A stretch of 64,000 bases of DNA from Candidatus Syntropharchaeum caldarium (GTDB taxonomy: Archaea; Halobacteriota; Syntropharchaeia; Syntropharchaeales; Syntropharchaeaceae). How positions within the stretch are numbered: the first letter of the stretch is position 1; every line of letters starts with the position of its first letter. The notes under the pieces were generated by a model. That model did no database searches and had not been told where the DNA came from. It saw only the letters and a list, made by a program, of their open reading frames with translations. Positions 32,321 to 53,014 of the stretch are shown in pieces. Position numbers and translations under genes: made by a program. The stretch spans positions 39,777 to 103,776 of the forward strand of contig LYOS01000002.1 of NCBI GenBank assembly GCA_001766815.1, written 5' to 3'.

Positions 32321-33394
32321 CTATTTTAGCTGACCGTACTTCCTGGTTGCTGCAACCATTGCCTCGATGTTTTCATCAGGTGTCTTCACGAAGAAATCGC
32401 ATCCAGGAGAGACAACATCGATCTTTGCATTTTCGATGATATTTTTCACCCACGCATCGATCTTATCCGCACTATTCTTCTTCTTGAGAAGTGACATCGT
32501 TGGCAGGTTTCCAGCGAGCGCGACACCTGTTCCAGCAGAATCAACACTCTCCCGTGCCTTTACTGCATCGGTCTTCTCATCGATTACAATCATCTTTGCA
32601 CCAACCTCGGCACAATCTTTCATGATTGGCCCGGCTGTACCTGACATTGTAAGAATCTCCATTGGAGATTTTGCAAATATCTCGCTGATTGGTGCTTTGA
32701 ATAGATCAACAAAGTCCTTTGGTGAGACATTGTCACAGCAGGCACCGTCTTCCCTGTACACGACATAGTCTGCGCCTGCTTCCTTGTAGATCTTTCCGAG
32801 TTCGATCGGAAGATCCAGCACTGCATTATAGAACGCCTTCACCTTCTCTGGATCCGTCCTCACCAGCATCATGAACTGGATCGTATCAAGGACGTATCCG
32901 AGCAATGTCGTGAAAATTCCCATTGACCAGACAAATATTGGTACCTCACCATAGTACTTTTCATGGAGTATCTTGAGGGCCTCTGTGATCACAGGAACCC
33001 TTCCTGAATTTGCGATATCATCCGGGATTGTGAGATCAGAGGGCTCCTTAATCTCGACACCATCTTTTGTGAAGCCAGGTCGCAGAACACCTGGCCAGAG
33101 GATCTTACCCTTCTTGAGCTGTTTCTCCCTGAAGTCCACAGCCATACCAAGTATCTCTGCCTCGACTACCGCATCAAATGGCACAACCACACTTTCAAGC
33201 CCAAATTTCTCATAAGCCGCGGAACCGAGTATAGCCATCTTTTCAGGATCTTTGTGAGCTTCAGGCCATCCTGCATTGAATTCCTTCATCAGGTTCTCTG
33301 TGTATGTCCCAACTCCCGGGCAGGCGCAGGGTATCCGATCGATCTCCCCTTTCTTGCCTTCCAGGATCAACTTCATCCTCTCGTACGAATTCAT
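32321..33394 (-). CDS. uroporphyrinogen decarboxylase (URO-D) family protein, MtaA/MtbA-like methyltransferase
   Basis: 357 aa. 'ERMKLILEGKKGEIDRIPC' N-terminus, 'VVVPFDAVVEAEILG'. A canonical HxC zinc motif is not obvious. Confidence 0.65.
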   Translation of the reverse strand: MNSYERMKLILEGKKGEIDRIPCACPGVGTYTENLMKEFNAGWPEAHKDPEKMAILGSAAYEKFGLESVVVPFDAVVEAEILGMAVDFREKQLKKGKILWPGVLRPGFTKDGVEIKEPSDLTIPDDIANSGRVPVITEALKILHEKYYGEVPIFVWSMGIFTTLLGYVLDTIQFMMLVRTDPEKVKAFYNAVLDLPIELGKIYKEAGADYVVYREDGACCDNVSPKDFVDLFKAPISEIFAKSPMEILTMSGTAGPIMKDCAEVGAKMIVIDEKTDAVKARESVDSAGTGVALAGNLPTMSLLKKKNSADKIDAWVKNIIENAKIDVVSPGCDFFVKTPDENIEAMVAATRKYGQLK

Positions 33395-34646: not shown

Positions 34647-35381
34647 TTATGGGTAGGTATAACTTTCCACATAGGCGTTTTCGTAGCCAGACTCTGTCAC
34701 GTTGTCACCGAGTGCCTGGAAGTTATCGACTGTCCACTCGCCATCCTCATCCTCTTCGGCATCGAAATCAAGGACAACATTCTTCGTCCATGAGATGTTG
34801 ACACCAACGCGGGTATGACATCCAATGCATGCCTCGTTCGAGTCGATCATAAGGTCATCATCGATCGCCTGCTGGATGAATGCGTTGTGTGCGGCCTTCG
34901 TCCCATTTCTGCCACCGGCATCATAGGAGTACTGGTAAGGATCGTTTGTCTCATCGCCGTTGTAATCACCAACACCATCTGGCTGATCGAATCCACCCGC
35001 GTGTGGGTAACCACCGAGCCCATCATTTCCATACTCATGGCAGATCATACATGCGATCGTCTCTGCTGCGTGCGAGGTCGTACCTGGGGTTGAACCTGAG
35101 GTATCACCTGATGCAACACCTGTTGGCTTCTGCACCTGTGAGGAGTTCACCCTGTGACAGTCACACCCAGGGGATGCAAGGCCTTTGTGCACACCATTAT
35201 CAGAATCGATCATCTCTGCGTTGATATCGCCATGACACTTCACACAGGGTAGCTGGTTTCCATCATCACTCAGGTTATACCAGCTGTGCTGTCCACTGAA
35301 GAGTGCTGCTGTCTGTGGGAGTGCGAATATTCCGATTGCTACGATTGCAACCAGTAGCAGTCCAGTTGTATTCCTTCTCAT
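34647..35381 (-). CDS. membrane-anchored multihaem c-type cytochrome (3 CxxCH + 1 CxCH)
   Basis: N-terminal TM anchor. CVKCH, CMICH, CIGCH plus 'GCDCH'. GGAGGTGA 5 nt upstream. Paralogue of 42871..43566. Confidence 0.85.
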   Translation of the reverse strand: MRRNTTGLLLVAIVAIGIFALPQTAALFSGQHSWYNLSDDGNQLPCVKCHGDINAEMIDSDNGVHKGLASPGCDCHRVNSSQVQKPTGVASGDTSGSTPGTTSHAAETIACMICHEYGNDGLGGYPHAGGFDQPDGVGDYNGDETNDPYQYSYDAGGRNGTKAAHNAFIQQAIDDDLMIDSNEACIGCHTRVGVNISWTKNVVLDFDAEEDEDGEWTVDNFQALGDNVTESGYENAYVESYTYP

Positions 35382-35671: not shown

Positions 35672-36160
<489 letters not shown>

Positions 36161-36166
36161 TTAAAA

Positions 36167-37075
36167 CTATACTGTCTCAGATGAGAAATAGATCGTATCA
36201 CCTGTTTTCAGATCATTGAGAAGTTCACGGTTTTCTGTCACTGTGCCCACGATGTTACTTGCTTTGAAGTTCTCGCCTGTTGGCCCATATTTTTCACTTG
36301 GTTTGAGTCGTATGCCTATCGTCCCCGCACCTTCTTTTGCCATATTTGTCACACCAATTGTAAAGCTCTCCATCACATCAGGGGTATTCTCTGGCATTAT
36401 ACTCCGCTTATATCCTGCTCGTTCATCGAAGAGAACGAACGCACGGTATTTCTTCTTGACGCTCAGTTTTCCAACACCAGCCCTCATAAAGGTTGCATAT
36501 CTGAAGTAGTGAAGTGTCTGGTCTATATTTTCACATAGTTTTATCCTGAGGATCTTATCTGATGATATGCCGTATGTCCTGACCTCTCCTGTTTTAAGAA
36601 TGGATATCGTATAGACTGGGTTCTGTTCTACAATGATTGCGTCGTCCTCGATCGCGCCCTCCCGGATTTGATGGATTCCACGCGCACTGAGCATCCTGTA
36701 TGCCTCCTCCTGTTGCATTCCGATCGCCATTATTCGTGGTGGTTCAACAGAAAGCATAACCTCATCGGATGCCTTCAGCCCTTCCAGAACCTCTGTATTC
36801 TCCAGTATGCCCACAACATCGTGCGATCTTGAGGGTAAAACATTGCGTCGATAGATGTAAACATTACCAATGCCATTTCCCGTGTTTCTCACTGTTACAG
36901 TGTTACTTGAACGAAAACCTGTGGGATCGTCACCATTTCCATAGAAATCAGCCGACCCCACGATCTTTACGTACGTATCGTTAATCTCTTCTACCTTCAA
37001 AGTTCGATCTGCTACGACGTAGATATAGTCGCTTGCCTCATTCTCACTGATGACCTTCAATCGTATTTCTTTCAT
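36167..37075 (-). CDS. methanogenesis marker protein 3 (Mmp3/UPF0288)-like, short form
   Basis: C-terminal half 'MPENTPDVMESFTIGVTNMAKEGAGTIGIRLKPSEKYGPTGENFKASNIVGTV' matches my memory of the Mmp3 signature (PEN.P...G.iGvTN....G.iGvR....fGPTGE). ATGA overlap with the upstream gene. Confidence 0.6.
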   Translation of the reverse strand: MKEIRLKVISENEASDYIYVVADRTLKVEEINDTYVKIVGSADFYGNGDDPTGFRSSNTVTVRNTGNGIGNVYIYRRNVLPSRSHDVVGILENTEVLEGLKASDEVMLSVEPPRIMAIGMQQEEAYRMLSARGIHQIREGAIEDDAIIVEQNPVYTISILKTGEVRTYGISSDKILRIKLCENIDQTLHYFRYATFMRAGVGKLSVKKKYRAFVLFDERAGYKRSIMPENTPDVMESFTIGVTNMAKEGAGTIGIRLKPSEKYGPTGENFKASNIVGTVTENRELLNDLKTGDTIYFSSETV

Positions 37076-37617
37076 GTCTGCAGGCTCTGGAAGACCTGAT
37101 CAAGTCTTTGTGTACTCAGGACTTCCTCTGATGCTACCACCAGAAGTGCGTTCTTCTCTTTCTTTACATTCCATATCCTGAACCCCTCTGGCGCCAGTAA
37201 TTCAAGGAAGGTGATGATATCGTCGAGAAATTCTTCAGACGGCTCAAATATGACAGATTGCATGAAATCCTCCTCTATCTCGGTCTTTACCAAAATTTCA
37301 AGTCTATTTGGCTGTTCCACCATACTGCGTCCAAAGGCATCCCAGAGGTATCGAAGCAACGTTGGCGCGTATGTTTCATCCTTTATGCGAAATATCGTCT
37401 CTCCATCTTCACTTTCGCTCTCCGCTATATTTGCTATTGTAACAAATGATCCACGAGCTTCTTTATAGGCAAGACGAGCCGCAAAGACTCCTTCTTCGGG
37501 ATCAATCTCCATCTCTATCTTATCTATTTCTACTGGAAAGTCATGTGCTCTGATCTCTGCAACTCTGCGATAGGCATCAGCCCCCTTTGCATCCTGGGAT
37601 CTTACAATAATATCCAT
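37072..37617 (-). CDS. methanogenesis marker protein 17 (Mmp17)-like
   Basis: 181 aa acidic soluble protein. Assignment rests mostly on size and its position between A2 and Mmp3-like genes. No motif verified. Confidence 0.45.
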   Translation of the reverse strand: MDIIVRSQDAKGADAYRRVAEIRAHDFPVEIDKIEMEIDPEEGVFAARLAYKEARGSFVTIANIAESESEDGETIFRIKDETYAPTLLRYLWDAFGRSMVEQPNRLEILVKTEIEEDFMQSVIFEPSEEFLDDIITFLELLAPEGFRIWNVKKEKNALLVVASEEVLSTQRLDQVFQSLQT

Positions 37618-37620
37618 CTT

Positions 37621-39189
37621 TCAGATAATGCCACTTTTCAGTGCGTATTCGATGCCTGTGTCAGTATCTCCGGTGAAGATCGCCTTGCCCTTATCCATTA
37701 CCGTAACCCTGTCACACACGAGCCGTACAAACTCAAGGTCATGGCTCACGATAAGAAACGTGGTCTTATGTTCGTTGCGACGGTTAATAATAGAGTTGGT
37801 TATCTGGTACATTGTCATCTCATCCAGTGTGCCTGTTGGTTCATCCAGTATCATTATCTTGGGGTCCTTGAGGATAATCGATGCAAATATTATCCGATGC
37901 TTCTCTCCCTCGCTAAGCTCATCGGGATATCGTTTCAAAATTCCCTCAATTCGTTCTTCACTAAACCCAACAAGCTCAAGGACGTCATAAATTTTCTCCT
38001 CTAAGATCTCTTCCGGCACTCCTGGTACAAATCCCTGCATATTTCTGTAAACTGTCTGGTATGCGGATAGCCCATATTCCTGGTGAAGTATGGCGATCTT
38101 TTCTTTGACACGCCCCCTTTGTATGCCACGTTCACGCATATCCACACGTTCACCATCCAGTCGAACTGTGCAGACACCTTCAAATTCGGAACTGTCACCA
38201 TTGATAATTGTAACAAGTGTTGTCTTACCTGCACCGCTATGTCCCAGAATCCCGTGTATCTCGCCTTCATAAATATCGAGCGATACGCCATCCAGTGCTT
38301 TTATAACACCCTCATCCACCGTGAAGTATTCCCTGCGAAGATCTCTGCACTGAATTATTGGTTCACCTTCAAAGTTAACAACCTGTTTCTTCGACAGACG
38401 TCGTTCAGCGATGAAACGTTCCATTACCTTGCTTGTCTCTCCCTCAAAGACTGCCTTTCCTTCTATAAGCAATATCGATCGCGGGGCCACCTCAGGTATA
38501 TACGATGTCAGATGTGACGCGATGAACGTTGTTCGCTCTTTCGAGATCTCTTTTATCACATCATACATCTCTTCTGATGATTTGGGGTCAAGCGTTCCCG
38601 TAGGCTCATCAAGCAGAAGCACCATCGGATCTTTTGCGATCTGTCTTGCCATCACGACTCTTTGCTTCTCACCGCCGCTCAGGTCCCGTGCAATATGTTT
38701 GATCCTGTGTTCAAGTGAGACGATCTTCACGATCTCATGTGCCCGTTCCATACGTGCATCGATCGGATAATCAGAGCTATGCAGAGCTGCAAGCACATTC
38801 TCGATAACAGACCGCATCGAATAAATCCCGGTGGCTTCCTGAAACATGATCGCAACCCGCCGTTTTATCACATCGCGCATACCTTTATCAATCTCCCAGA
38901 AGTCAACCCGCTGGAGTTCCATCGCCGAACCACAGCGCGGGCATTCTGTGCGTGATGGAGTATCAACCCGCTCGCAATTCTCACAAAAGCGAATGTTGTA
39001 GTATATATGCCCGGCTGTTGGTCTATATTCCTCCATGCCGCGCAATGTGTACATTAGTGCGCTTTTTCCAGCTCCACTTGCTCCAATAACACCGATTATA
39101 TCGTTTTCTTCCACGCTCAGGTTTATATTATCGAGTATCTTGTTGCCTCCCTTTTCGATGGAAAGATTTTCTATCTCTATAATCTTCAT
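37621..39189 (-). CDS. atwA: methyl-coenzyme M reductase system component A2 (AtwA), double ABC ATPase
   Basis: Two ABC cassettes (Walker A 'GASGAGKSA' and 'GHSGAGKTT'; signatures 'LSGGEKQRV' and 'LSEGEKHRI'). Cys4 insertion 'CENCERVDTPSRTECPRCG' after the first P-loop. Track start 39207 is TTG; ATG 39189 gives the 'MKIIEIENL' start. Confidence 0.8.
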   Translation of the reverse strand: MKIIEIENLSIEKGGNKILDNINLSVEENDIIGVIGASGAGKSALMYTLRGMEEYRPTAGHIYYNIRFCENCERVDTPSRTECPRCGSAMELQRVDFWEIDKGMRDVIKRRVAIMFQEATGIYSMRSVIENVLAALHSSDYPIDARMERAHEIVKIVSLEHRIKHIARDLSGGEKQRVVMARQIAKDPMVLLLDEPTGTLDPKSSEEMYDVIKEISKERTTFIASHLTSYIPEVAPRSILLIEGKAVFEGETSKVMERFIAERRLSKKQVVNFEGEPIIQCRDLRREYFTVDEGVIKALDGVSLDIYEGEIHGILGHSGAGKTTLVTIINGDSSEFEGVCTVRLDGERVDMRERGIQRGRVKEKIAILHQEYGLSAYQTVYRNMQGFVPGVPEEILEEKIYDVLELVGFSEERIEGILKRYPDELSEGEKHRIIFASIILKDPKIMILDEPTGTLDEMTMYQITNSIINRRNEHKTTFLIVSHDLEFVRLVCDRVTVMDKGKAIFTGDTDTGIEYALKSGII

Positions 39190-39224
39190 AGACCCACTCC
39201 GTTGCAAACTTAAATCAAGGCTTA

Positions 39225-40004
39225 TTAATTCTTTTCTGTTTTTGCAGACAATGGCATGAGCGTAGAGGTTCTGTAATATAGATCATTTATACGCGCATAT
39301 TTTGCACCCCAGAACTCAACCACCTCTTCAACCGTGCCTGCTGTACCTGTGGCAGTATAGGTAACCTCCATCCCCTCCTCAATCTCTGGTGCTGTTTCGA
39401 TGGCTTTCTCTTCGCCAGACTCGACAAAGACGATTCGTTTTATTTCCTCAGTACTTCGCAGTGGAGTGATATGCCCCCTGATGACACCTGTGATAATACC
39501 AACAACCCTACCTTTTGTGAGTCTCTTCTCTGGTAGGGGGCGAACATACTTGGTATCAACCCCCTCACGTGCCAGATCCTCGTAATCGATTGGACACTGG
39601 CATATCACGATCGATGGCTTATCGAAGAGTTTGAGAAAGTAGATTTGCTTATAAATTATATGTCGTGCGACATTGCCGTGGTGAAATATGAGTAGTTTTG
39701 AACGTTCGATCCGTTCGCGCTCATCCTCTTCCAGTTTGAATTCAACCTTCACAAAATGCTGTTCCGCCTTGATACCTTTTCCCTTACGAAGGACAAGCAC
39801 CGATGCTTTGATCCCATACGCACGCAACCGCTGTGTTATATCACAGACTGGATATGGGATGTGTCGATCCGAAAAGTCCATCGCGATTATCAGTGCATCC
39901 TCGCCATACTCATCCGAGTGCGTGCCTCCACGCGCTATACCGTAACCAAGCCCCCCTCCAAACTTTGCCCTACAGTTGACATAGTGGGCCTTTCTGCCTA
40001 TCAT
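39225..40004 (-). CDS. mcrC: McrC-like protein (MCR operon protein C homologue) with C-terminal extension
   Basis: 'MIGRKAHYVNCRAKFGGGLGYGIARGG', 'YPVCDITQRLR', 'ASVLVLRKGKG', 'PSIVICQCPIDYEDLAREGV', 'TKGRVVGIITGVIRG' follow the McrC pattern. About 60 extra C-terminal residues. AGGTG upstream. Confidence 0.75.
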   Translation of the reverse strand: MIGRKAHYVNCRAKFGGGLGYGIARGGTHSDEYGEDALIIAMDFSDRHIPYPVCDITQRLRAYGIKASVLVLRKGKGIKAEQHFVKVEFKLEEDERERIERSKLLIFHHGNVARHIIYKQIYFLKLFDKPSIVICQCPIDYEDLAREGVDTKYVRPLPEKRLTKGRVVGIITGVIRGHITPLRSTEEIKRIVFVESGEEKAIETAPEIEEGMEVTYTATGTAGTVEEVVEFWGAKYARINDLYYRTSTLMPLSAKTEKN

Positions 40005-40018
40005 AAATCACACCTTTC

Positions 40019-40879
40019 TTATACAGATGGAACACTCAGCGGAAGTTCAATGATTATATCGTCCTGTGTGCCCCTCTTTATGCTGCCAAACTCACCGAGT
40101 TTACCAAAGTAAAATTCCATCTCTCCGAGTTTCTCTGCATATTCATCATAGGATGCGTTCACTCTGAGACCGCTCATTTTGAGTACCACGTTCACACCAA
40201 ACTTTGATTCAATCTCGGTTTTTATATAGGGATAGGTTGCAGGAACATCAGGTCGAAGGCTTCCGATGATCGAGATTACACTCTCCATAAATGCACCTAT
40301 TATCCGTTTATCATCAGGATCATCGAACATCGTTGGTATCCTTGTAATAGACGGGATGAAAATCAGCTCATCATCAGACTCAAGATCTGCATAGCCTGTC
40401 ACGATCACAGGTACATTAAGCCTTCTGCAGAGTTCCATCTTCTCACGGATACAGTGCTCAAAACATCCAAACATGAAGATCGCCAGATCGTGCTCCTCGA
40501 TCATCATCCGCTCTTCCCTCATCAGAATCGCCTTTCTGCCAACGCCTCTTGCAGGTGCGATTGTGTTCACCTTTGCGCCAGCCTGCCGCAGTGTCTCAAC
40601 CGTGCTGCAGTGTGGAAAGGGTGTGTGATGAAGATTAAATGAGGGGATGATCACCGCAACTTCGATACCATAGAGCGGTACAGTGATAACCCTTCCTGAA
40701 TGCTTACGGAGAGCTGCCCGTTTACGCAGAATGTTCACCGATTCATGATCTATCATCACATCAAATTCTGCAACACCACCCATCTGGTCTATGTTCAGGA
40801 CAAAACCGCCAAGATCCTCTATGAACTCAATTATTTCGTCTGATTCAAACGCATTTCCGATATATTTTAGCGGCATCAT
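40019..40879 (-). CDS. methanogenesis marker protein 7 (Mmp7)-like
   Basis: 'EFIEDLGGFVL', 'NLHHTPFPHCSTVETLRQAGAKVNTIAPARGVGRK', 'IEEHDLAIFMFGCFEHCIREK', 'NVPVIVTG' resemble the Mmp7/McrC-related pattern as I recall it. Confidence 0.6.
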   Translation of the reverse strand: MMPLKYIGNAFESDEIIEFIEDLGGFVLNIDQMGGVAEFDVMIDHESVNILRKRAALRKHSGRVITVPLYGIEVAVIIPSFNLHHTPFPHCSTVETLRQAGAKVNTIAPARGVGRKAILMREERMMIEEHDLAIFMFGCFEHCIREKMELCRRLNVPVIVTGYADLESDDELIFIPSITRIPTMFDDPDDKRIIGAFMESVISIIGSLRPDVPATYPYIKTEIESKFGVNVVLKMSGLRVNASYDEYAEKLGEMEFYFGKLGEFGSIKRGTQDDIIIELPLSVPSV

Positions 40880-40897
40880 TTTTATTCCACGCCGTAT

Positions 40898-42679
40898 TCA
40901 GCTCAGATGGAAATACCTGTATGCATCTCCCGTATCCTCAATCTCACCGCCTTTTGAGACAAAGTCGGCGTACTTTCGATTGACAAATTCATTACAGATA
41001 GTCTCAGGATCGCCTGTCATCAGAATTTCGCCACGGTGTATCAGCAGTGCCCGGTGTGCAAGCTCCTTCACCGCATCCAGTTGATGGCTCACGAGGATTA
41101 TTGTGAGGTTGTGCTCCTTGTTGAGGGTTTTTATTGCATTTATACATTTACGCAGCGAGATAGGATCGAGATCTCCGAAAGGCTCATCGAGCAAGAGGAC
41201 CTCTGGCTTCTCCGTCATGTGAAGAGCAAGCGCAACCCGTATCTGCTCACCTGCACTGAGTTCATATGTATAGTGATCCATGAGAGAAAGAGGAAGATCG
41301 AGCGCTTCAAATATGGGTTTCATCCGCTTTTTAGCTTCGTCTGCAGGTATCGTTGGGAATAACTTCCTCAGAATCCCTGGATCAAGTTTCAGCTCCCTGA
41401 GCATGTCTTTCATCTCATCTTCTGGCAGATCTGCAAGTCTATAAAGTACATCCAGCTTCACGTCACTTAGTCCCATTTCTCTCGCCCGTTCGACCACCTC
41501 AGGCAGGAATCGCACGTCCTTTAGCCCAAGTTTCTGCTCAAAGAGGTGCAGCACGATTTCATAGTGCGTGAGCGCAAACTCCTGATGTAACGTTGAGATG
41601 TTAAGACGCGCCTTTACAGCATCATAACCATAGGTACAGATATTTGTCCAGCGCTCTTCACCACCATCGTTGATCCTGTAGGTAACCTCACCAAACTGAG
41701 GAGGTTCAAGTCCTGCAAGCAACCTGATCAGTACTGTCTTTCCAGCAGCACATGGTCCAACGAGTGCAAGTATCTCGCCTTCGTAGATATCGAAGTTGAG
41801 ATTTTTCATCTGGATCGTCTCGATAAACTTTGCACCTGATGTGGTTATCTGGTAACGCTTCCAGAGGTTGGTGAGGCGCATCTTCGGCACTTCTCGTGGT
41901 ATCGATGGCTCAACGGGTTGATCGATCTTTGCAACAAACTTTTTAATGATCTCATCTGGTTTCCCCTCATCAACCACCTTTCCTTCCTCAATCCAGAGCA
42001 CCCTATCAGCGAGAGTTTCGTGTATTTCTGGCATATGAGAGACAAATACAACAGTAACACCAGCATTCTCATTTATTTTTTTTATCGCATCAAGCATCAT
42101 CCCTCGACCAACAGGATCTATCATGGTGGCTGGTTCATCTACAAGAAGAACACGTGGATTTGCTGCGAGCTGTCTCGCAAGCAGAACACACTGCTTCTCA
42201 CCGCCGCTGAGGATATTGTAGTAGTAATACTTCTTATCCAACATGCCAACAATATCAAGAATCTCGGAGGCCCGTTTGAAGAGTCGTTTATAGTCGTTTG
42301 AACCTGTTGTAGGTATCTCTTCAAAACCTGTCTCAAGCTTTCCCAGTTTTCGCATCACATTATTTATCACACTCTCAGGCCATAGTGCAAACGAACGTTG
42401 CAGATGCAGTGCGGTTATCTTCTGGAGTTCAAGCTGTTCATTGGAATTAGAGTCAGGTGTGAGTGTGATACCATCAACCCTTACAGATCCTTCTTTAAAT
42501 GATTCCACGCCCCTTAAAATTCGCAAGAGTGTGGTTTTTCCTGCACTGCTCCTTCCTAATATACCCAGAACTTCACCCTCATCGACTGAGAACGAGACGT
42601 TCTCAAGAGCAGTGTGTTCTTTCTCAATCTTTGAGATCTGATAAGTCTTCGTTAAATTTTCTACTTCGATGATCTTCAT
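40898..42679 (-). CDS. second component-A2-like double ABC ATPase (paralogue without Cys4 insertion)
   Basis: 'GILGRSSAGKTTLLRILRGVE' (A2-like first P-loop), 'LSGGEKQCVLLARQLA', second cassette 'GPCAAGKTVL' / 'LSAGEQIRV'. GGAGG upstream. First gene of the operon. Confidence 0.75.
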   Translation of the reverse strand: MKIIEVENLTKTYQISKIEKEHTALENVSFSVDEGEVLGILGRSSAGKTTLLRILRGVESFKEGSVRVDGITLTPDSNSNEQLELQKITALHLQRSFALWPESVINNVMRKLGKLETGFEEIPTTGSNDYKRLFKRASEILDIVGMLDKKYYYYNILSGGEKQCVLLARQLAANPRVLLVDEPATMIDPVGRGMMLDAIKKINENAGVTVVFVSHMPEIHETLADRVLWIEEGKVVDEGKPDEIIKKFVAKIDQPVEPSIPREVPKMRLTNLWKRYQITTSGAKFIETIQMKNLNFDIYEGEILALVGPCAAGKTVLIRLLAGLEPPQFGEVTYRINDGGEERWTNICTYGYDAVKARLNISTLHQEFALTHYEIVLHLFEQKLGLKDVRFLPEVVERAREMGLSDVKLDVLYRLADLPEDEMKDMLRELKLDPGILRKLFPTIPADEAKKRMKPIFEALDLPLSLMDHYTYELSAGEQIRVALALHMTEKPEVLLLDEPFGDLDPISLRKCINAIKTLNKEHNLTIILVSHQLDAVKELAHRALLIHRGEILMTGDPETICNEFVNRKYADFVSKGGEIEDTGDAYRYFHLS

Positions 42680-42870
42680 GTTAAAACCTCCTTAGAATCC
42701 TCAGAATCATCATAATCTTAACCTGTTCATCATATATAAGAAGATCTATTTTTGGATTGAGGAGGGTTAATCATTTAATTTTTCTAAAGAGCTGTCATGT
42801 CCACAACCTTTATATCTCGCACATGCGATAAGTTAATGTAAGGTAAAGAGTCAGAAATGATCAGCGAAAG
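42680..42870. promoter_or_regulatory. divergent promoter region between the MCR-activation operon and the cytochrome operon
   Basis: 191-nt AT-rich spacer. TATA-like 'TTTATATC' at 42809-42816 (+), 55 nt before ATG 42871. 'TTATATAT' on the minus strand at 42732-42739, about 55 nt before ATG 42679. Confidence 0.3.
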
Positions 42871-43566
42871 ATGAAAAAACACACACCGCTTCTGCTCATG
42901 ATCGCCGTACTTGCGATCGGTATATTCGCACTCCCCCAGAGCGTTGCGCTTTTCTCAGGTCAGCATTCATGGTATAATCTCACTCCACAGGGTAACGATG
43001 TACCCTGTGAAAAATGTCATGGCGACATCGCTTCAGAGATTGCATCAAGTGGTGCACACAAAAATATCGAGTGCGGCGGATGTCACAGAGCAGATGCAAG
43101 GGTTGGCTATGCCGGGGACTGGGAGGGGGATGTGGATCCAGGACAGGGTGCACACGCGGCATCGACTATTGAGTGTATGATCTGCCATGACAGGGGCACA
43201 AACTTCACACACTCCAATATCGGAAGTGATGAGTGTTCTGACTGTCACACCTCGCCTTTTGTGGCGCCTGGGGCAGGAGGCTTCAATCTGACTGATCCTT
43301 CTGTCTTGCCGTCTGATACCGGCACAAAAGCCGCACACATGCAGTTTGTCCATGACGCGATCAACGAGACGCTCATGGAGGGTGCAAACGAAGCCTGTAT
43401 AGCATGTCATACGCATGTGGGTGTCAACATCACATGGACGAAGAACGTGGTGCTCAACTTTGAAGCATCAGAGAATGAGACTGGAAGCTGGTCGATCCCT
43501 GAGTTTTCAGCAACAGGGGATAATGTGACAGAATCAAACTATACAAACACCTGGGTAAATACTTAA
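42871..43566 (+). CDS. membrane-anchored pentahaem c-type cytochrome
   Basis: N-terminal TM anchor. CEKCH, CGGCH, CMICH, CSDCH, CIACH. Paralogue of 34647..35381. Confidence 0.85.
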
Positions 43567-43579
43567 AAGGGGGGTTAAA

Positions 43580-46500
43580 ATGAATGAAGGAATGAAAAAG
43601 GTCAAAATCTTTATTCTCGTATTGCTTATGATCGCATCACCGTTTTCGATGCTTACTGCAGGTGCTGCTATCGATGGCTCAAAGCATGACTTCACGTTTG
43701 AGAGTGAACTTACGCCAAATGGTGCGTGTTCCGCCTGCCATGAGTGGCGTACCATGACGTGGGCACGAAACCTGAGTGAAGAGGAGGCTTATTTTAACCA
43801 GACAGAAGATCCAAACTACGTCCATGATCCTACCATAAAATGCTATGACTGTCACAGTGGCACTGCGGCAGACAATGATCCCAGTTACACGCTTTTTATC
43901 AATACAACACTTGGCAGATATATCCCGCAGGACGTTGCCTTTGATGCCAATATGAAGGGAAACGATCTATCCTATGACAGCTCACCCTCTGATGATGAGA
44001 CCGGATACTACGAGTCATCGACATCAGGCCACTACATAAAGACGAACGCAACAGGCCTGACGAATATTGAACCTGGTGATAAGCTCCCATGCACCGACTG
44101 TCATGAACCACACGAGACAGAACCCACAAATGAGGTCTTCATAAAAGGAAGCTCCGAATATCCACTTGGTGGAAAGGTTGTATCAAACTTAAAAGCAAGC
44201 ACAAACACCCGATCTGGTACTGGCACTGGACGTGAGATCTGTGCGGTATGTCATGGATACAGCGATTCAGGCATAGCTGTCAGGTTTGTTGATGTTAATC
44301 CCCTCTATGGCTCGACCGATAGGATCGTTCAGACCCCGTCAACGGTATCCCAGCATGCAGAGAATGATTCAACACCATGCACAGACTGCCACTCACATAG
44401 CACCCCGGCATCGTATTTTGTCGGAATCAGCAGCCACAACACCCACTTAACCGCCGAGTTTGGACCCAAAATATCCTCGTGCACAGGTGCCGATGGCTGT
44501 CACAGTGAGGGAAACTTCAGCCGCTTCAACGACAACCTCACACTCTCAGCGACTCATGCCTGCGATAACTGCCACAGCCCGAATGGAACATACAATGGTG
44601 TCACCCTTGCCAAGGCAAGCTGGGAAGAAGGCGTCTACAACGGCACAGACTTAAAATCAAGCAAGGAGAAGTGGTGTGCAAGCTGTCATGATAAAGAACC
44701 TGCCAGCTCTATGGGGAATGGAAGCGGTATAAACGCCCCGAATATCGTCGGGATGAATCTAAGCGGTAGCTGGCAGAGCCCCGTCGCTATTATAACAAAT
44801 CAGACGGAAAACGTCAGTGATGCAACAAACCTGCTGGATGGTGACGTTGAGACCGGTGCGAGTGTGAGTGGGGCATCCCAGATCGTCTTTGATCTTGGAG
44901 AGAGTACAGAAGTCTCCCATATCAGGCTTTACACATCTGCCAGTTCCACGGTCAAGTGGGAGGTGTACGGGAGCAATGATCTTTCAAACTGGACGAGAAT
45001 ACTCTATGGTCAGGATGTGATCTTTTCCGCTCCTGCATGGCTTACAGGTGAAGATGAGGGATGGGATGAGAGCAGGGTTGACAGGATCATACCTGTGAGA
45101 TACATCAAGCTCTACAAGAGGAGTCCGTGGCCCGTGGGGAGTGGTTCTCAGCGTGAGTTTGAGTATAAAGCAGATATACGGTATGGATACTATACCACCG
45201 GTCACAAGATTGCCTGCACCAACTGCCACAATAGAAGTAGCGCGCATATCGATGGAACCTCACAGACCTACAACACAACCCTTGATAACTATCAGACAGG
45301 TTTCAGGCTGAAATATCTTGAGGTTGAGAATGAAACCGTCCCCTCACTTGAGATACCAAGAGTCGACTGTAACTGGGGTGATTATCCAAAAACCTCAAAC
45401 GACTTTGCACTCTGTTTCTCATGCCACAACAAGTATAACCTCCTCGGGGATGCGAGTGGTACAGGCGACTACCATAAGGATCCACCCCAGACAAACTTCA
45501 GGAACAACACCACAAACGCCCACCTCATCCATCTGCAGGGAAGGGGATACTGTGGAAACAATCCTGACTGGGACTCAGACTGGAACGGCACAGCAGACTC
45601 ACCACAGAGTTGCACCGCGTGTCACAATGTTCATGGCTCTCCTGCTCCTGCGATGACAAGACACGGAGAACTTGTGAGTATCAACGATACCCTTGAGAAG
45701 GCTCCCCTCCTGAACCTGAAGTACATAAACGCAGACGGAGAGCTTGATCATAATCTCTCAGATGCCACCCAGAGTATCGGCGGAAGGACACAGTTCTATG
45801 GTGCAGGACCCGGAAACGTTGCGAAGAATAAGGTGTGTAACATGTGCCACAATGATCAGATTACCTATTATCGCACACCAGTACCTCCCACCGTAACCTG
45901 TGGTAATGGATCAGGAACAGGAGGCTGCCACAGCCCCACCGCATACTCTTCCTCTGCAGCAGGCAGCCACAATACTCATCTAACCGCACCCAGGGGACCA
46001 AACATAACATCCTGCACAGGTGCTGATGGCTGCCACAAAGGCAACCACACCGGTCTCTTCAACGATGGTTTACCGCTATCAACAACCCACAGATGTGATA
46101 ACTGCCACAGCCCGAACGGGACATACGATGGTGTGAATGACTCCACAATCGGAGCAAAACCCAACTGGGAAAATGGAGTGTACAACAATTCCACGACATT
46201 AAAGTCAGGCAAAGAGAAGTGGTGTGCAGGATGCCATGATGACGAACCGGCGTATAGTAAGGCAGAGTACAGCGAGGTCATCGTGGATAACACCGAAGCT
46301 TCTTTTGCTGGTTCATGGAGTACATCCTCTCACTCAACCGATTATGGAAGCAACTACAGATACAATGGTGCAGGTTCAGGCACTGAAACAGCAACGTGGA
46401 CACCTAACCTGCCAGAATCTGGTAATTACTCGGTCTATGCATGGTGGCCCATATATGTTTCAGGAAGAGCAACGAATGCACCGTACACCGTGTACTACAG

Positions 46501-49500
46501 CAGCGGGTCTGAGACGGTAAGGGTGAACCATAAAGCAGGAGGGGGTGGCTGGAACTACATCGGCACATGGAACTTCTCTGCTGGAACATCAGGTTACGTT
46601 GTGCTCAGTGATGATGCCGATGGAATTGTAATGGCTGATGCCATCAGATTTGTTAAAGGCGGGAATGCCACGTACGCACCCAATATCATCGGTGATAATA
46701 CAAGCTATGGGTTCTATGCAACAGGTCATGGTCGAAGCGGTGTTGTGGATTGCCTGTCCTGTCATGATTCAGATAAAACCCATATCGATGGAATTCAGCG
46801 AACGTATGAAGCAAATGAGACAACAGGTGATGCGATCACACCCTACAATAACAGCTACCGTTTAAAGGATCTTGATGGGTTGCCAGCGATGGTAATGCCA
46901 AGAAAAACAACATCCACATTTAATATGCAGGCCTACTGGCGGGATTTTAACCTCTGTTTTGACTGTCACAACAGGTTTGAGGTGCTGGGTGAAACATCAT
47001 CGGATATCAGTAACACCAACTTCTGGAATAATGATTCAAGTATCTCAAACTCACACTGGCTCCATCTCGGGATAGATAGCAAGCACTTTGACTCTGATTA
47101 TGACAGTTCTGCAGACTCACGTGAGAGCTGCATCGCATGCCACAACGTACACGGTTCGCCAACAGGACCGATGATAAGACATGGAGAACTTATAAGCTAT
47201 CCAAGTACAGCGAACAAGGAGCCTGCGCATAATTTCTACTATCTTCTCCCTGGAGATGGTTCAGCCACTGCCAGGTTTACACCCACACTTGCAGGCGGAA
47301 CATATGATATCTATGCATGGTGGAGCTCGCACTCAAACCGTGCGACAAATGCAAAGTATATAATATACCATGATGGTGGTAGCGCTGAGGTAATCGTCAA
47401 TCAGGAGGAGAACGGCTCACAGTGGAACCTCCTTGGCGAGTACAATATTACAACTTCAAACGGCACGGTCGTTCTGACATCAGATGGCGCCAACGAGTAC
47501 ATCATGGCAGACGGAATCCAGTGGAACAGAACAGATGGCGGAGATACTGTCTATGTTGATGAACCTGATGCCACCTATACTGGAAGCTGGACTGTGGAGA
47601 CCTCAAACCCAGACAAATATTACGGAGATAGCACGAGATACTACTATGCACCCATCAGGAATGCGACTGCAAACGTGAATAAGAGTACTGGCGGCACCTT
47701 CTATGTAAGCGGTGTAATCACTGCAAATCATCTCTGTCAGATGTGTCATAGCAACGTCCAGTACAACAGAGACCCGTATACCGGACCAAGAGTTCCATAC
47801 AGTGATGCAACCCCTGATAACATCTCAAACTTTGAGAGTAACACTGTAACATTCACGGCTTTCGTTACCGATGTGGATGAGAACATAGCAAATGTTACCA
47901 TCGATCTCTCAAGTTTTGGTGGTAACGTTAGCCAGAGGATGTACGATGACGGAACCCACGGTGATACCAAGGCAAATGATGGTGTGTATAGCTACCAGTT
48001 CACAGTGCCTGCAGGTGTTGATGATGGTCCAAGGAGTATCACAGTCACCGCAACAGACGATGATGGTAATAGCGGTGAAGGTCTGATCGATCTTACCGTC
48101 TATCAGCCAGGCGCACTGATCATCGATGATGAAGATGCAAGCTTCACCGGAACATGGGGAGAATCCACGGCAGACGAGACGACGTATGGAACAGGATACC
48201 GCTGGCATGCTTCAGGCACCGGGAGCAATACAGCAACGTGGAGTGTCAACATCACAACCGCCGGTAACTACACCGTCTACGCACGATGGGTTACAGGAAG
48301 CAACCGTGCTACAGATGCACCCTACACGATTAACTATGAAGGAGGCAACGAAACAGTAAGGGTTTCACAGCGGATAAAAGGAGGAAAGTGGAACCGTCTT
48401 GGCAACTACTACTTTGACGTCGGCGAGTACTCGGTCGTTCTCACAGATGATGCTGATAACTACGTTATAGCTGATGCGATAAAGCTTGAATCTGAAGCCC
48501 CTCCAGCTTACCACCCATGGCCAATCGCCGACAATCCCGATGCTGAATACAACGGAACAGGATGGTATACTGGAACAGCCGATAGCGGTTATTATGGCTC
48601 AGACTTCTACTACCATGCCTCAGGCACAGGAGAAAATACCGCAACATGGACACTCGCAGTTCCAGAAGCTGGAAAGTACGATGTGTACGCATGGTGGGCA
48701 GACGGCTCAAACCGTGCAACCAATGCACCCTATATGATTAACTACGAAGGAGGCAGTGAAACAGTAAGGGTTTCACAGAAAATAAATGGAGGAAAGTGGA
48801 ACCTGCTTGGGACATATTCATTCAATGCAGGTAACTATTCAATAGTACTCAGTGACGATGCAGATGGATTCATCATTGCCGATGCAGTGAAGTTTGAGCT
48901 TAACCAATCTGTATGGCTCACCCCTTCCTCAATCCAGTGCACAAACCTCACCAACGCTTCACTCCTGATCGATAACAGCACATCAACTGCCAACGCGCTT
49001 GATACCGGAGATGAACAGTATGTGGTCTTTGATCTTGGTGCAAGATACACCGTTCCATCGATCAAGATGTACACTGATGGTAGCGGCAACTACACATGGG
49101 ATGTCTATATGGGGGATAACATATCTGATCCTGCCTGTTGCAACCATTCAAGCTGGGGCACGCCTGTCCTTGAGAACTGGACTCCCTCTACTTCGGGGTG
49201 GAACGAGGTCAACCTGACAACACCCGCCACAGCGAGATACATAAAGCTCATGCGAAACGATACAGGTGATGATCTTGCCGCAGACAGCCTCTATGAGTTC
49301 ATGTTCGACCCACCAACGGCAACGCTCACCTTTGAACTCCACTCATACGCTGATATGCATATCTATGACCCGGAGGATCGCCATCTCGGGATGAACTACA
49401 CGACAGGCGAGATCGAGAACCAAATTCCCGGAGCAGTATATGACTTCGGTGATGTCCAGACTGCTACCCTGCCAAAGCTTGCAGTGGGGGAGTACAGGGT

Positions 49501-50482
49501 GATACTCAAAGGAACGGGGACAGGTGGATATGAACTGACCGTCACGGGCGAGGATGATGATGGTGTACTCACCAGTGAGACCGTTGCTGGAAATATCACA
49601 GCAGGTGAGATCCATGATGCAACCGCAGCGGTTAACACCACAGACATCACAAACATCACGATAGCACTCGAAGATGAGCCAGAGCCAACGATCAATGCAG
49701 ACGGAGTTGATAATGTCACACTCGCTGATCTCTATCCTGATATCGATGAGGTTGATATCGACCCCCTCGATCCTGAGACGATCGATACCACAGGGATGCC
49801 AGATATTGCCATTCACACCGCCTACATGGTCAACGCCTCAGGAGATGGTGAGTACACACTGAGGTTTGAGGATGTGGAGAACGCTGAGCTTATCACTGCA
49901 GTCTATAAGATCAATGAAGAGGGTGAATGGATCGAGCTTCCAGCAGTGATCAATGGATCGAGAGTTGAGGTTACGATGGAAGCAGGTGATCCACCGGTTA
50001 TTTTTGCATATCCAGCACCAGAAACACCGACTACAGATGACACAAACACCGCATCAACAGGTGGTAGTGGTGGTGGGGGCGGCGGAGGTGCAGGCCCGAA
50101 GGACTCAGATGGTGATGGTGTACCCGATCGTCAGGAGCAGCTTGATGGGACAGATCCTCTCAACCCTGATACAGATCATGATGGACTGAACGACTTTGAG
50201 GAGCGTGTGGCAGGAACAGACCCGAACAATCCTGATACCGATGGTGACGGAATAATCGATGGTGAAGATCCGGATCCAGCGATTATGAACTTCACACAGA
50301 AGGTGAAGAAGACCTTCTCTGATATTTCAGATACCATCTTTAGATCGGGTTCAGAGAATGCGCCGGTACCATCTTCAGAGAGCGGTGCAGAAGAGAAGAC
50401 GCCAGGGTTTGGAAGCTTTGCCTGGATCGTAGCAGTTCTTGCTATGGGGTATCTGGTAAGAAGGGAAAAAGTTGAAAAATAG
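43580..50482 (+). CDS. giant secreted multihaem c-type cytochrome with discoidin-like and golvesin-C-like domains, TSP3 repeats and PGF-CTERM anchor
   Basis: GGGGGG 6 nt upstream and a signal peptide. 17 CxxCH, 2x CTGADGCH and 1x [11 protein letters not shown], all within about the first 1390 aa. Poly-Gly linker, 'DSDGDGVPD...DTDHDGLND...[14 protein letters not shown]', and terminal '[27 protein letters not shown]'. Confidence 0.9.
48134..48900 (+). repeat. tandem duplication (period 408 nt) inside the giant cytochrome gene
   Basis: AACCGTGC at 48302 recurs at 48710. The GAAACAGTAAGGGTTTCACAG...GGAGGAAAGTGGAAC block is nearly identical in both units. Each unit encodes one about 136-aa golvesin-C-like domain. 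Confidence 0.8.
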
Positions 50483-50503: not shown

Positions 50504-51814
50504 TTAAAATATCTGCTGTGGAGGAGTGTTAGCTCCTCCCGGTGTTGTATTCTCAAAGATTGCAAAGTCGTTGCTATCAACGTCTGTATCCATGCCATCG
50601 GGGTATCTGCCTGCAGACGCACCATCTTCTGGTGCCTCAGCATTGTCTGAAACGTCGCCATCATCGAAGTCACCGTATGTAACTCTATCGATCACATTCC
50701 CGCCATTTTTCAGGATGATGGTATCTCCGCCATTGTTGAGTCCGAACGAGAAATCAGTGGACTTGTTCAGCAGCAAGAACCCATTTGCAGGTATTGTTTT
50801 TCCGTTTAGACTTGCAGGTGAAGCAGTGTTATCCTCGATCGTCCAGTCATCAAGCGAAATATCCTCGTCCATCAGGTTGTAGAGTTCGATCCATTCTGAA
50901 TCACCTGGTAAAGGATCTGAAAGAAACTCATTCACAACAACCTTCGGGACAGCATCACCCGCTTCGATCGTAAATGTCCCATCAACCACCCTATGTGTGA
51001 TCTCATCCACACCGTCTGTGAGTGATATAACCGTAAGATCGAGTGGGCTTGTGTCACCAATAGCCCCAACTGCTTCAAAGGTAATCTGAGCAAAGACCAC
51101 ATCGCCTGTAAGGCTCGTTGGGAAGTTGAGGGCTGTGTACTGGATAGATCCAGCGCTGTTGTTGATATCTCTATATAGCGGGAAGTTGAACTCGCCATCG
51201 GCAACATCAAGCACCTGCACGACATCTGGGTCGAAGTTCAGGATGATGTTTGCTCCCAGTCCCTGGTAGAGGTTCTCGATCATGATCGGAACTGTGGTAG
51301 TCTCACCTGCTTCACAGCTTAGATTCTCTATCGATACGATCGTATCAAGCACGGTAAATGTCCCGTCAACCACTGTATGCGTGATCTCATCCATGCCGTC
51401 TGTGAGTGATGTAACCGTAAGATCGAGCGGGCTTGTGTCACCACCCTCACCAACTGCCTCAAAAGTTACCTCTGCAAAGACCACATCGCCTGTAAGGCTC
51501 GTTGGGAAGTTGAATGCCGCGTACTGCACATATCCTGCCTCATTATCGATCTGGCTATAAACCGGGAAGTTGAAATCACTTCCATCTATATCAAGCACCT
51601 GCACGACATCTGGGTCGAAGTTCAGGATGATATTTGCTCCCAGTCCGCCATCAAGATTCTTGATTATGATTGGAACGGTCACACTCTCGCCTTTGCCAGC
51701 AGCCACATCCTCGATCGAGATGACCGTCTCTTCGTTTGCAGCTGCTGTAATTACAAGAGCTGATGCTACAATGAGTATGGCAACCACAGATGCAGCCAGT
51801 TTATGCCTCATCAT
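50504..51814 (-). CDS. secreted protein with two cohesin domains and a lamin-tail (LTD) domain
   Basis: Signal peptide. Two 128-aa units 'GE..TVPI.I.NL..GLGANIILNFDPDVVQVLD...LTGDVVFA..TFEAVG..GDTSPLDLTV.SLTDG.DEITH.VVDGTFT'. Then 'VVVNEFLSDP..DSEWIELYN...ISLDDWTIED....GGDTIILKNGGNVIDRVTYG'. Confidence 0.75.
   Translation of the reverse strand: MMRHKLAASVVAILIVASALVITAAANEETVISIEDVAAGKGESVTVPIIIKNLDGGLGANIILNFDPDVVQVLDIDGSDFNFPVYSQIDNEAGYVQYAAFNFPTSLTGDVVFAEVTFEAVGEGGDTSPLDLTVTSLTDGMDEITHTVVDGTFTVLDTIVSIENLSCEAGETTTVPIMIENLYQGLGANIILNFDPDVVQVLDVADGEFNFPLYRDINNSAGSIQYTALNFPTSLTGDVVFAQITFEAVGAIGDTSPLDLTVISLTDGVDEITHRVVDGTFTIEAGDAVPKVVVNEFLSDPLPGDSEWIELYNLMDEDISLDDWTIEDNTASPASLNGKTIPANGFLLLNKSTDFSFGLNNGGDTIILKNGGNVIDRVTYGDFDDGDVSDNAEAPEDGASAGRYPDGMDTDVDSNDFAIFENTTPGGANTPPQQIF
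50960..51727 (-). repeat. tandem duplication (period 384 nt) = the two cohesin modules
   Basis: CCGTAAGATCGAG at 51031 recurs at 51415. Long near-identical nucleotide stretches occur in both units. Confidence 0.8.
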
Positions 51815-51825: not shown

Positions 51826-52737
51826 TCAGCGAAGCAGTTCATAGCCAGCAATCCCGTTAATATGTGATGCCAGATAGACCGCATCGAGCAGGTTGACAAC
51901 ACCGCTGCCATCAACGTCTGCAATTCTCTCGTTCAGGTCATATCCAGGGACCCCGAGTGCATAGCATCCAAGATACACAACGTCATCCTCATCCACATCA
52001 CCATCATCATCGACATCGCCGTTCTTTTTCACAGTGAGCTCAACACTGACCGATGTCTCTGAGAGACCGGGTGCATTTGTTGCGTTGACTGGCAGGAGAT
52101 ACGTACCTGGTGTGGTTCCATCACTTGCATTTGTTACAATTGTGTAAACACCTCCGCCAGTATCAGTCATCACTGCTTCACTATCTCCACCTATCTGAGA
52201 TAGATCGATCGTAACCGAATCGATAGCGCAGATATCGGTGACAGTAACAGATAGCTCTGCTTCTTCTCCCCAGAGAGGGGTATCATCCGTATCGTCAGGG
52301 ATTATCGCAGGATTTGCAGATGGATCTGTCACAAGTGGTGGTGCAACTCCGGTCAGATCAACTTTTCTCGGTGGCTGCATGCGCCCCCATTCTGCAGTCT
52401 CCTGTGCAGTCATCACCCTTCCATCAGGTAGCGTTATCACGAATGTAATTATCTTTCCACGATCATATAGCGTGCCTGTAACCGCCAGATAATTGAGATT
52501 GTTTCCATATTCTCCTTCAATACCTACTGTTGTAGTTCCTCTGAGTTCACCATCGATATACGCCTCTATGATTGTATCTGTGGGCGCGTCAACACCGTTA
52601 ACGCTCACATTTCCCCAGAATTTATTTGGTAGTGCTGGAGGAGGGGAAACCGCTGTTGCTGCTATCACACCAAGCAATAAGAGCAGGCTAATAATAAGAA
52701 TGCCTCCAGTTACCTTTTTCGTTACTTCTTTTTGCAT
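51826..52737 (-). CDS. secreted dockerin-domain protein
   Basis: Signal peptide 'MQKEVTKKVTGGILIISLLLLLGVIAATAV'. C-terminal dockerin with two Ca-binding loops 'DVDDDGDVDEDD' and 'DVDGSGVVNLLD'. ATG 52737 follows GGAGG by 7 nt (track start 52797 less likely). 11 nt upstream of the cohesin gene. Confidence 0.7.
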   Translation of the reverse strand: MQKEVTKKVTGGILIISLLLLLGVIAATAVSPPPALPNKFWGNVSVNGVDAPTDTIIEAYIDGELRGTTTVGIEGEYGNNLNYLAVTGTLYDRGKIITFVITLPDGRVMTAQETAEWGRMQPPRKVDLTGVAPPLVTDPSANPAIIPDDTDDTPLWGEEAELSVTVTDICAIDSVTIDLSQIGGDSEAVMTDTGGGVYTIVTNASDGTTPGTYLLPVNATNAPGLSETSVSVELTVKKNGDVDDDGDVDEDDVVYLGCYALGVPGYDLNERIADVDGSGVVNLLDAVYLASHINGIAGYELLR

Positions 52738-53014
52738 ACACATGCCTCCATTCCTCGTGGTGGCCAACCTACATCTCTTCAAAAGCAGTCGCATCAAAAT
52801 GACAAAATGCCATAATTATTTGACATTTCTTGTACTGTTGGACTGCTATATGACCACCAGAAGCGCATCATCGTTTATACTATTTAAAACTATCGATCTC
52901 AAATATCGTTGTTCTGATGTGAATTTGACAGATGAATAAAAATACAAAAAGAACAAATAAGTCAATCATGGAAGTAATGATAAATTTAAATTGATAAGAC
53001 CCTGAACTGGATTA

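Follow-up and report, generated by a model that had tools for sequence, protein, structure and literature searches.

A zinc-less paralogue of component A2 at the head of a reductase-activation operon in Candidatus Syntropharchaeum caldarium

How methyl-coenzyme M reductase (MCR) becomes activated is a central open problem of methane biology, and both the structure of an activation complex (2025) and the ATPase activity of its component A2 (2026) are recent additions to the field. Component A2 (AtwA), an ATP-binding cassette (ABC) protein, binds ATP, closes its cassettes and helps to keep the McrA latch open, with hydrolysis occurring only when it is bound to MCR under reducing conditions. In the cryo-electron microscopy (cryo-EM) structure from Methanococcus maripaludis, A2 sits on McrG and contacts the N-terminus of McrA, and makes no contact with McrC, Mmp7 or Mmp17 (PMC12176620). 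P396 and F399 of its helix 'ELPDEFAK', together with the C-domain of Mmp3, hold the displaced McrA N-terminal helix, and a flexible, zinc-coordinating loop is conserved in methanogens and methanotrophs (PMC12176620), zinc being bound at this motif in 8S7V/9H1L. Mutation of the four cysteines in A2 of Methanosarcina acetivorans halves the basal ATPase activity and abolishes its stimulation by MCR (bioRxiv 10.64898/2026.03.18.712670), and the same 2026 preprint proposes a redox switch and notes that the zinc motif sets A2 apart from related ABC ATPases. Many archaea, including M. acetivorans (MA_3967), also encode an A2 homologue with both cassettes and no zinc motif, which served as the outgroup in Adler & Nayak 2026 (10.64898/2026.03.18.712670), and Kaster et al. 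2011 apparently list such homologues as extra copies under 'AtwA1 and/or AtwA2', one of the two Methanothermobacter genomes having two AtwA genes and the other three (loci 151, 454 and 1015, and MTBMA_c13970 and c06010; PMC3087415). No function is given to the zinc-less homologue and no gene context is described in either source (10.64898/2026.03.18.712670, PMC3087415), and the supplements of the Nature paper hold no 'ABC transporter' or 'ATP-binding' entries. Here we describe one member of each type, encoded in a single operon within a stretch of 64,000 nucleotides (nt) from Candidatus Syntropharchaeum caldarium (contig LYOS01000002.1, positions 39,777 to 103,776; hereafter the window, to whose positions all coordinates refer): a 522-residue component A2 and a 593-residue zinc-less A2 homologue, labelled A2h.

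We propose that A2h is a zinc-less paralogue of the A2 family and a second remodelling ATPase in the maturation or activation of MCR and of alkyl-coenzyme M (alkyl-CoM) reductase (ACR), a joint claim to which we assign a probability of roughly 0.6. The difference between A2 and its zinc-less homologue is already published, and the contrast between the two proteins is in itself ordinary. The operon contributes a new member to each family, both from an archaeon that oxidises alkanes, together with a gene context and a structural clue for the zinc-less family.

Two A2-type ATPases in one operon

Positions 37621-42679 hold four out of seven tightly packed genes, with intergenic gaps of -4 to 35 nt in the list of open reading frames (ORFs), and every gene of the operon lies on the minus strand. 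The two ATPase genes and their distinguishing elements are as follows.

40898..42679, minus strand: A2h, 593 amino acids (aa), soluble twin-cassette ABC ATPase, operon gene 1; ORF, with TIGR03269 as best match, below its cut-off
41288..41524, minus strand: helical module of A2h cassette 2, residues 386-464; translation, family alignments and structure model
37621..39189, minus strand: component A2 (AtwA), 522 aa from ATG; TIGR03269 559 bits (cut-off 517)
38932..38985, minus strand: predicted zinc-binding motif of A2, CENC-x10-CPRC (C69, C72, C83, C86); alignment columns

The initial annotation had described both proteins as double ABC cassettes, and a complete Walker A, signature and Walker B set is indeed found in each cassette of both. 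The strings that it quoted are all present, GVIGASGAGKSALMYTLRGMEEY and CENCERVDTPSRTECPRCG in the minus-strand ORF 39207/39189-37621 and GILGRSSAGKTTLLRILRGVESF in ORF 42679-40898 (593 aa). In the shorter protein the motifs are GASGAGKS / LSGGE / VLLLDEP in cassette 1 and GHSGAGKT / LSEGE / IMILDEP in cassette 2, and in A2h they are GRSSAGKT / LSGGE / VLLVDEP and GPCAAGKT / LSAGE / VLLLDEP, respectively. The shorter ORF yields 528 aa from a TTG at 39207 and 522 aa from an ATG, the latter being the form called in other assemblies. It passes the curated A2 cut-off of TIGR03269 (559 bits vs 517.1; profile positions 1-514 of 530 matched by residues 10-517 in the numbering of the 528-aa form) and is collinear with the solved M. 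maripaludis A2 (8s7v_K; 411 bits, residues 2-511 vs 2-515). Its identity is 55% to the nearest relative beyond its own lineage (own-lineage matches, 100% and 88%) and ∼44% to methanogen A2. Like the described A2 proteins (M. maripaludis 8S7V/9H1L chain K, Methanothermobacter thermautotrophicus AtwA and M. acetivorans MA_3998), it combines twin cassettes with a Zn(Cys)4 loop and full-length collinearity, and its gene shares an operon with those of Mmp17 and Mmp3; it differs from them in the spacing of its Cys pairs, which is x10 rather than x12. In the 522-residue protein, Candidatus Syntrophoarchaeum has a true, though divergent, component A2, which probably serves the alkyl-CoM reductases of the organism.

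The four cysteines, C69/C72/C83/C86, follow the first Walker A helix in a CxxC-x10-CxxC arrangement that agrees with the family pattern CxxC-x(10-12)-CxxC. These columns read CCCC in 13 of 13 aligned A2 sequences, and CPHC...CEC occupies the matching site of the solved M. maripaludis A2. As had been noticed from the sequence alone, the Cys4 element is confined to the 522-residue protein: A2h is gapped at all four columns, its five cysteines are scattered with no cluster, and A2 has 27 aa more than A2h around the motif. The element is the family-defining zinc motif of A2, already known, and is predicted to bind zinc here.

A zinc-less sister family of A2

A2h is identical in sequence to the database entries OFV67991.1 / RLG32677.1, whose source is Candidatus Syntrophoarchaeum, a butane oxidiser that uses alkyl-CoM reductases. 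A2h fails the A2 cut-off (291 bits in three stretches vs 517.1), with TIGR03269 still its best NCBIfam match. Its best match among PDB sequences is A2 (8s7v_K, 201 bits; next chain, 132), and the same chain is the best fold match (E 7.3e-40, TMt 0.80, TMq 0.71) of its AlphaFold2 (AF2) model, which has a predicted local distance difference test score (pLDDT) of 86.9 and a predicted template modelling score (pTM) of 0.82. The two proteins of the operon are 28% identical and collinear across both cassettes. In a domain-wise neighbour-joining (NJ) tree, the first cassettes of A2h and A2 cluster together (188 of 200 bootstraps), as do their second cassettes (182 of 200), and the A2 and A2h families are each monophyletic (at least 194/200). 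A HMMER search of 1.84 billion representatives recovered ∼11 full-length A2h clusters at 50% identity (562-322 bits), and the next full-length matches, with fragments and a single Helarchaeota protein (P0260) set aside, were zinc-motif A2 proteins at ∼222-196 bits, followed by generic ABC proteins. A2h thus displays what characterizes the zinc-less family: it has both cassettes, it lacks the zinc motif, and the family nearest to it is A2. The initial annotation had named a placement of the 593-residue protein among ordinary transporter ATPases as the outcome that would refute its reading; the NJ tree, NCBIfam, PDB sequences and fold all point to A2 instead. We regard it as near-certain that A2h is an A2-type paralogue in an ancient sister family of soluble twin-cassette ABC ATPases, which would appear to be that of MA_3967 / 'AtwA2'. 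Reciprocal monophyly holds for the two families, whose split predates the divergence of the archaeal phyla.

The protein set aside in the HMMER search, from Candidatus Helarchaeota (P0260, 557 aa, 221 bits), is a second paralogue of the zinc-less family in that lineage, with degenerate motifs (signature LTTSE, Walker B LDNP and LDEF), which suggest that it is probably a non-catalytic copy.

A2h might alternatively be a fused importer ATPase of the ordinary kind. It scores 190-250 bits with generic ABC importer models, and the fused Mycobacterium tuberculosis importer ATPases OppD (Rv1281c) and DppD (8J5Q, 8WDB), which likewise have two cassettes per chain, are its second-best matches in sequence and fold. 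Such ATPases dock on permeases, yet no permease or substrate-binding-protein gene adjoins A2h in the window or at 12 genome loci, and A2 surpasses every transporter model and structure as a match for A2h (201 vs 132 bits; E 7.3e-40 and TMq 0.71 vs 2.6e-34 and 0.66 at best), so that an importer role is scarcely credible.

Full-length relatives of A2h are 565-584 aa in length and 37-63% identical. Members occur in the anaerobic methanotrophic archaea (ANME) ANME-1, ANME-2d and Methanogaster (ANME-2c), in Argoarchaeum, Ethanoperedens, GB37, Methanoperedens, Methanothrix and Methanobacteriales, and also in Methanococcus voltae (WP_013180635), Methanoliparum, Methanomethylicota, Hadarchaeales and Helarchaeota, with partial or shorter matches on contigs labelled Bathyarchaeota and Thermoproteota. 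All sources that carry a name are archaeal lineages in which MCR or ACR is known or reported. A scan of genome contigs with the full-length family alignment gave five true members and was dominated by bacterial importers through the generic Walker B pattern 'LLLDEP[AGS]TM', whereas a metagenome scan with a family-specific sub-alignment gave 80 clean loci, 78 of which could be assigned (52 Methanobacteriales-like, 22 ANME-1-like).

Absence of the zinc motif is a trait of the whole A2h family: none of its 45 aligned members has the Cys4 element, and 44 are gapped at all four columns, the remaining one (P0022) having non-Cys residues in two of the four. Conversely, 58 sequences show no variation at K47, Q93, S157, G158, G159, D180, E181 and H214, or at K313, Q365, S474, G476, D497, E498 and H531 (592-residue numbering). 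With every catalytic residue thus unchanged at both ATP sites, A2h is very probably an active ATPase, as far as sequence can indicate. The additional length of A2h had been assigned to the linker and the second cassette. The second cassette does hold part of it, as insertions of 31 and 26 aa in its helical subdomain (41288-41524), whereas any difference in length between the inter-cassette linkers of A2h and A2 is below 4 residues; a further 11 aa lie in the helical subdomain of cassette 1, and 22 aa form an unconserved C-terminal tail for which the model has low confidence.

The two cassette-2 insertions flank a retained 'DLPExEAK' helix and are conserved in alignments of 16 and 45 members. 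Together with the Walker B region 'DEPFGDLDP' they are hallmarks found in 16/16 members of alignment A1, and are also seen in members from Methanococcus, Hadarchaeales, Helarchaeota and Methanomethylicota. AF2 models the module as ∼six helices with block-mean pLDDT values of ∼79-93, and no Pfam family matches within it. An outright replacement of the A2 latch segment was considered and rejected, as the multiple alignment shows an altered helix retained between the insertions. At the positions of P396 and F399, the A2 of the operon has Pro and a hydrophobic residue (P392, I395), whereas the A2h family has a conserved Glu in place of the aromatic McrA contact. A2h therefore shares with A2 the twin-cassette fold, the cassette order, canonical ATP sites and an 'LPxExAK' helix in cassette 2, and departs from it by the absence of the zinc loop, a score far under the cut-off, the Glu substitution and the +31/+26 aa. 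On alignment and model, both client-facing specialisations of A2, the zinc loop and the latch helix, are altered in A2h. The two conserved insertions around the McrA-clamping helix seem to be new.

Gene context and a possible second ATPase of the pathway

A2h heads an operon that holds all published subunits of the MCR activation complex, namely Mmp7, McrC-DUF2098, A2, Mmp17 and the C-domain of Mmp3. In addition to A2, these are encoded as follows.

40019..40879, minus strand: Mmp7-like protein, 286 aa, divergent; TIGR03274 188 bits (cut-off 349), Pfam MCR_C E 6e-50
39225..40004, minus strand: McrC-like protein, 259 aa, with a C-terminal DUF2098 fusion; TIGR03264 180 bits (cut-off 213.5)
39231-39386, minus strand: DUF2098 part of the McrC-like protein, residues 207-258; Pfam DUF2098
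37072..37617, minus strand: Mmp17, 181 aa; TIGR03291 113 bits (cut-off 67), Pfam DUF2113
36167..37075, minus strand: Mmp3, C-terminal half only, 302 aa; TIGR03268 249 bits, profile positions 218-501 of 503

A comparable arrangement is found in a Methanomethylicota genome, in which A2h belongs to a tight operon Mmp3-Mmp6-Mmp17-Mmp7-A2h with gaps of ≤12 nt, McrC/McrD being divergently oriented and Mmp8 nearby. Looser linkage is seen in GB37 (Mmp17, Mmp7 and Mmp10 within 4.3 kb, an integrase intervening), Methanoliparum (Mmp3 and Mmp17 within 5.4 kb), Methanoperedens (Mmp10 2.6 kb upstream) and a Methanotrichaceae genome (McrC at 6.9 kb). The only neighbours to recur within 4 kb in at least 3 of 11 lineage groups are Mmp3, Mmp7, generic ABC ATPases and a peptidase M48. 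Overall, an MCR-associated gene lies within 10 kb of A2h in 6 of ∼13 lineage groups, two of them with tight operons, for which a rough binomial estimate gives ∼1e-3 on the assumption that 10% of a genome lies that close to MCR-associated genes. The linkage across lineages is suggestive, not conclusive. That a zinc-less gene heads an operon with every subunit of the activation complex, and also resides inside an Mmp operon of Methanomethylicota, seems to be new: the MA_3967-type homologue, by its description, is like A2h in having both cassettes, no zinc motif, A2 as nearest relative and a distribution over many MCR/ACR archaea, but a context inside an activation operon (here and in the one Methanomethylicota genome) is reported for A2h only.

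Several observations weigh against a role of A2h in reductase activation. The gene stands alone in most lineages; the genome loci of Argoarchaeum, ANME-1, ANME-2c and Helarchaeota show no linkage to MCR genes, and Mmp genes occur in the flanks of 0 of ∼76 metagenome loci, most of them from Methanobacteriales and ANME-1. A gene of the IF-2B family follows A2h by 2-3 nt in Argoarchaeum and GB37 (L004 9743-10750; L005 9746-10774), and ribosomal proteins S4e and L5 are encoded downstream of it in the closest relative. The restriction to MCR/ACR lineages covers named matches only, many matches being unnamed, and the labels Bathyarchaeota and Thermoproteota are no guarantee of MCR. In addition, narrowly sampled importer ATPases from bacteria formed the outgroup of the NJ tree, the equivalence of A2h with MA_3967 was drawn from the published description of that homologue, and no experiment linking the A2h family to MCR has been reported.

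Much of this would also be expected if A2h were a general soluble ABC ATPase with no MCR role, either a translation factor like ABCE/ABCF or a remodeller of other metalloenzymes such as corrinoid proteins, with its place in the operon incidental. Its solitary position in most genomes, the IF-2B-family, S4e and L5 neighbours, the RamA/AcsV-like corrinoid activase that follows it in Methanomethylicota, and the significant matches of its model to ABCF and ABCE structures are all consistent with such a role. ABCF EttA/Uup and ABCE1 share with A2h the concept of a soluble, non-transport ATPase clamp whose insertions serve as client adaptors; in those proteins, however, the adaptors lie in the linker or at the N-terminus and the client is the ribosome, and their fold likeness to A2h is weaker than that of A2 (TMq 0.52-0.58 vs 0.71). 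A2h has neither the long linker of ABCF proteins (PtIM) nor the N-terminal Fe-S domain of ABCE, its linker being of the length found in A2. Taken together with the confinement of all named sources to MCR/ACR lineages and the 6 of ∼13 lineage groups with MCR-associated genes close by, this makes a general ATPase unlikely, though it deserves serious consideration as the main rival. The IF-2B-family protein is possibly a sugar-phosphate isomerase or an eIF-2B-like protein. The ATP-dependent corrinoid reductive activase of Methanomethylicota (544 bits; L013 9378-11306) is encoded 41 nt after A2h, which places two reductive-activation systems side by side.

The initial annotation had suggested that the two ATPases may have sub-functionalised, one of them perhaps docking on the Fe-S scaffold and the other having a different client or a regulatory role, or else that they could form a heterodimer. 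They do share one operon, and with 28% identity over collinear chains they are true A2-type paralogues for which distinct roles are plausible. Their split is, however, older than the divergence of the archaeal phyla, across which orthologues are found, and is hence not local; docking on the scaffold is at odds with the cryo-EM structure, in which A2 rests on McrG and the McrA N-terminus and touches no Fe-S subunits. A heterodimer is hard to reconcile with cassettes that pair within each chain, each protein being a complete intramolecular dimer (A2 structure; AF2 pTM 0.82 for A2h), or with two genes that lie apart in most genomes, the closest relative included. This set of proposals is therefore very improbable.

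Laso-Perez et al. are said to have described several mcr-like gene sets in Candidatus Syntrophoarchaeum in 2016, and A2h might on that account be an isoenzyme-specific A2 for some of its alkyl-CoM reductases. The zinc-less family is also present, however, in Methanothrix, M. voltae and Methanobacterium, none of which is known to run more than one reductase type. Methanoliparia offer a precedent in two A2 proteins that track MCR and ACR, but both come from the TIGR03269 set, throughout which the zinc motif is highly conserved, and in methanogens that possess MCR isoenzymes only one A2 is used (10.64898/2026.03.18.712670). An isoenzyme-specific A2 is accordingly even less probable than local sub-functionalisation, and we consider the heterodimer, importer and isoenzyme-specific readings all to be unlikely.

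We return to A2h as a zinc-less paralogue that acts in reductase maturation or activation. The functional part of this proposal taken alone, that A2h is a second ATP-driven clamp of the MCR pathway, is tentative. Like A2, A2h would close its two cassettes on ATP and would thereby clamp MCR/ACR or the activation complex mechanically. Its enlarged cassette-2 module would grip a different surface or assembly state than A2 does, and it would be free of the zinc-thiolate gating that ties the ATPase of A2 to MCR binding and redox state. A2h would in this way be a second remodelling ATPase of the pathway and no partner subunit of A2. Somewhat more speculatively, A2h may be a dedicated and overlooked ATPase across MCR/ACR archaea, its module gripping either the N-terminal latch of McrA or the scaffold of McrC/Mmp7/Mmp3 at a stage of assembly that A2 does not serve, as in the loading or release of the activation complex or the servicing of the second active site. 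If true, reductive activation would need two distinct ABC motors, only one of which is redox-gated through zinc. The zinc-less family thus gains a gene-context clue and a defined candidate client-binding module, which together amount to a concrete hypothesis that is testable in M. acetivorans or Methanococcus, where orthologues and genetic tools are available.

Further features of the operon and its flanks

Two further features belong to the edges of the operon.

42687..42739, minus strand: candidate expression signals, TATA-like TTATATAT at 42732-42739 and Shine-Dalgarno AGGAGG at 42687-42692; read from the sequence
35672..36136, minus strand: archaeal riboflavin synthase RibC, last same-strand gene; TIGR01506 233 bits

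The AGGAGG, a strong Shine-Dalgarno element, ends 7 nt ahead of the A2h ATG, and with TTATATAT it likely constitutes the expression signals of the operon, as judged by motif and position. Both lie in a 191-nt intergenic region that is common to A2h and a divergent multihaem cytochrome gene. A sigma-70 promoter/terminator scan was disregarded as not applicable to archaea. Within the operon, A2h is separated from the Mmp7-like gene by 18 nt and A2 from Mmp17 by 3 nt, and the Mmp17 and Mmp3 genes share a 4-nt overlap. RibC follows Mmp3 by 30 nt on the same strand, and its co-transcription with the activation genes is possible.

In the cryo-EM complex of M. maripaludis, DUF2098 is bound by a loop of McrC, apparently as a separate protein, and the McrC-DUF2098 fusion found here lends independent support to that interaction. 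Mmp3 is represented in the operon by its C-terminal half, the part with which it clamps the McrA N-terminus. Short Mmp3 forms of 308-313 aa recur in the two nearest relatives (L009 8020-8976; L010 9822-10781), and full-length Mmp3 of 509-511 aa is found in Methanomethylicota and Methanoliparum. The 64-kb window contains no gene for the N-terminal half of Mmp3, Mmp6, Mmp8, Mmp10 or McrD. The activation set is divergent as a whole, as indicated by the sub-cut-off scores of Mmp7 (188 vs 349 bits) and McrC (180 vs 213.5 bits) and the ∼44% identity of A2 to methanogen A2, and this fits an activation machinery of the alkyl-CoM-reductase type.

Multihaem cytochromes flank the operon on both sides, with a divergent one of 231 aa (42871-43566) adjoining a giant of 2300 aa (43580-50482), and one of 244 aa downstream (34647-35381). 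In GB37, a 204-aa cytochrome (L004 2366-2980) is likewise divergent from Mmp17-Mmp7, and the flanking cytochromes at the two loci may represent conserved synteny. The giant cytochrome is in turn adjoined by a protein with cohesin and lamin-tail domains and by a dockerin-domain protein (50504-51814, 51826-52797), a pair that suggests an extracellular scaffold. Finally, a 357-aa protein of the URO-D family, which includes methyltransferases of the MtaA/MtbA type, is encoded ∼2.3 kb downstream of the operon (32321-33394), and Methanoliparum has genes of the URO-D family, together with one for a corrinoid protein, in the interval that separates Mmp17 from the zinc-less homologue.

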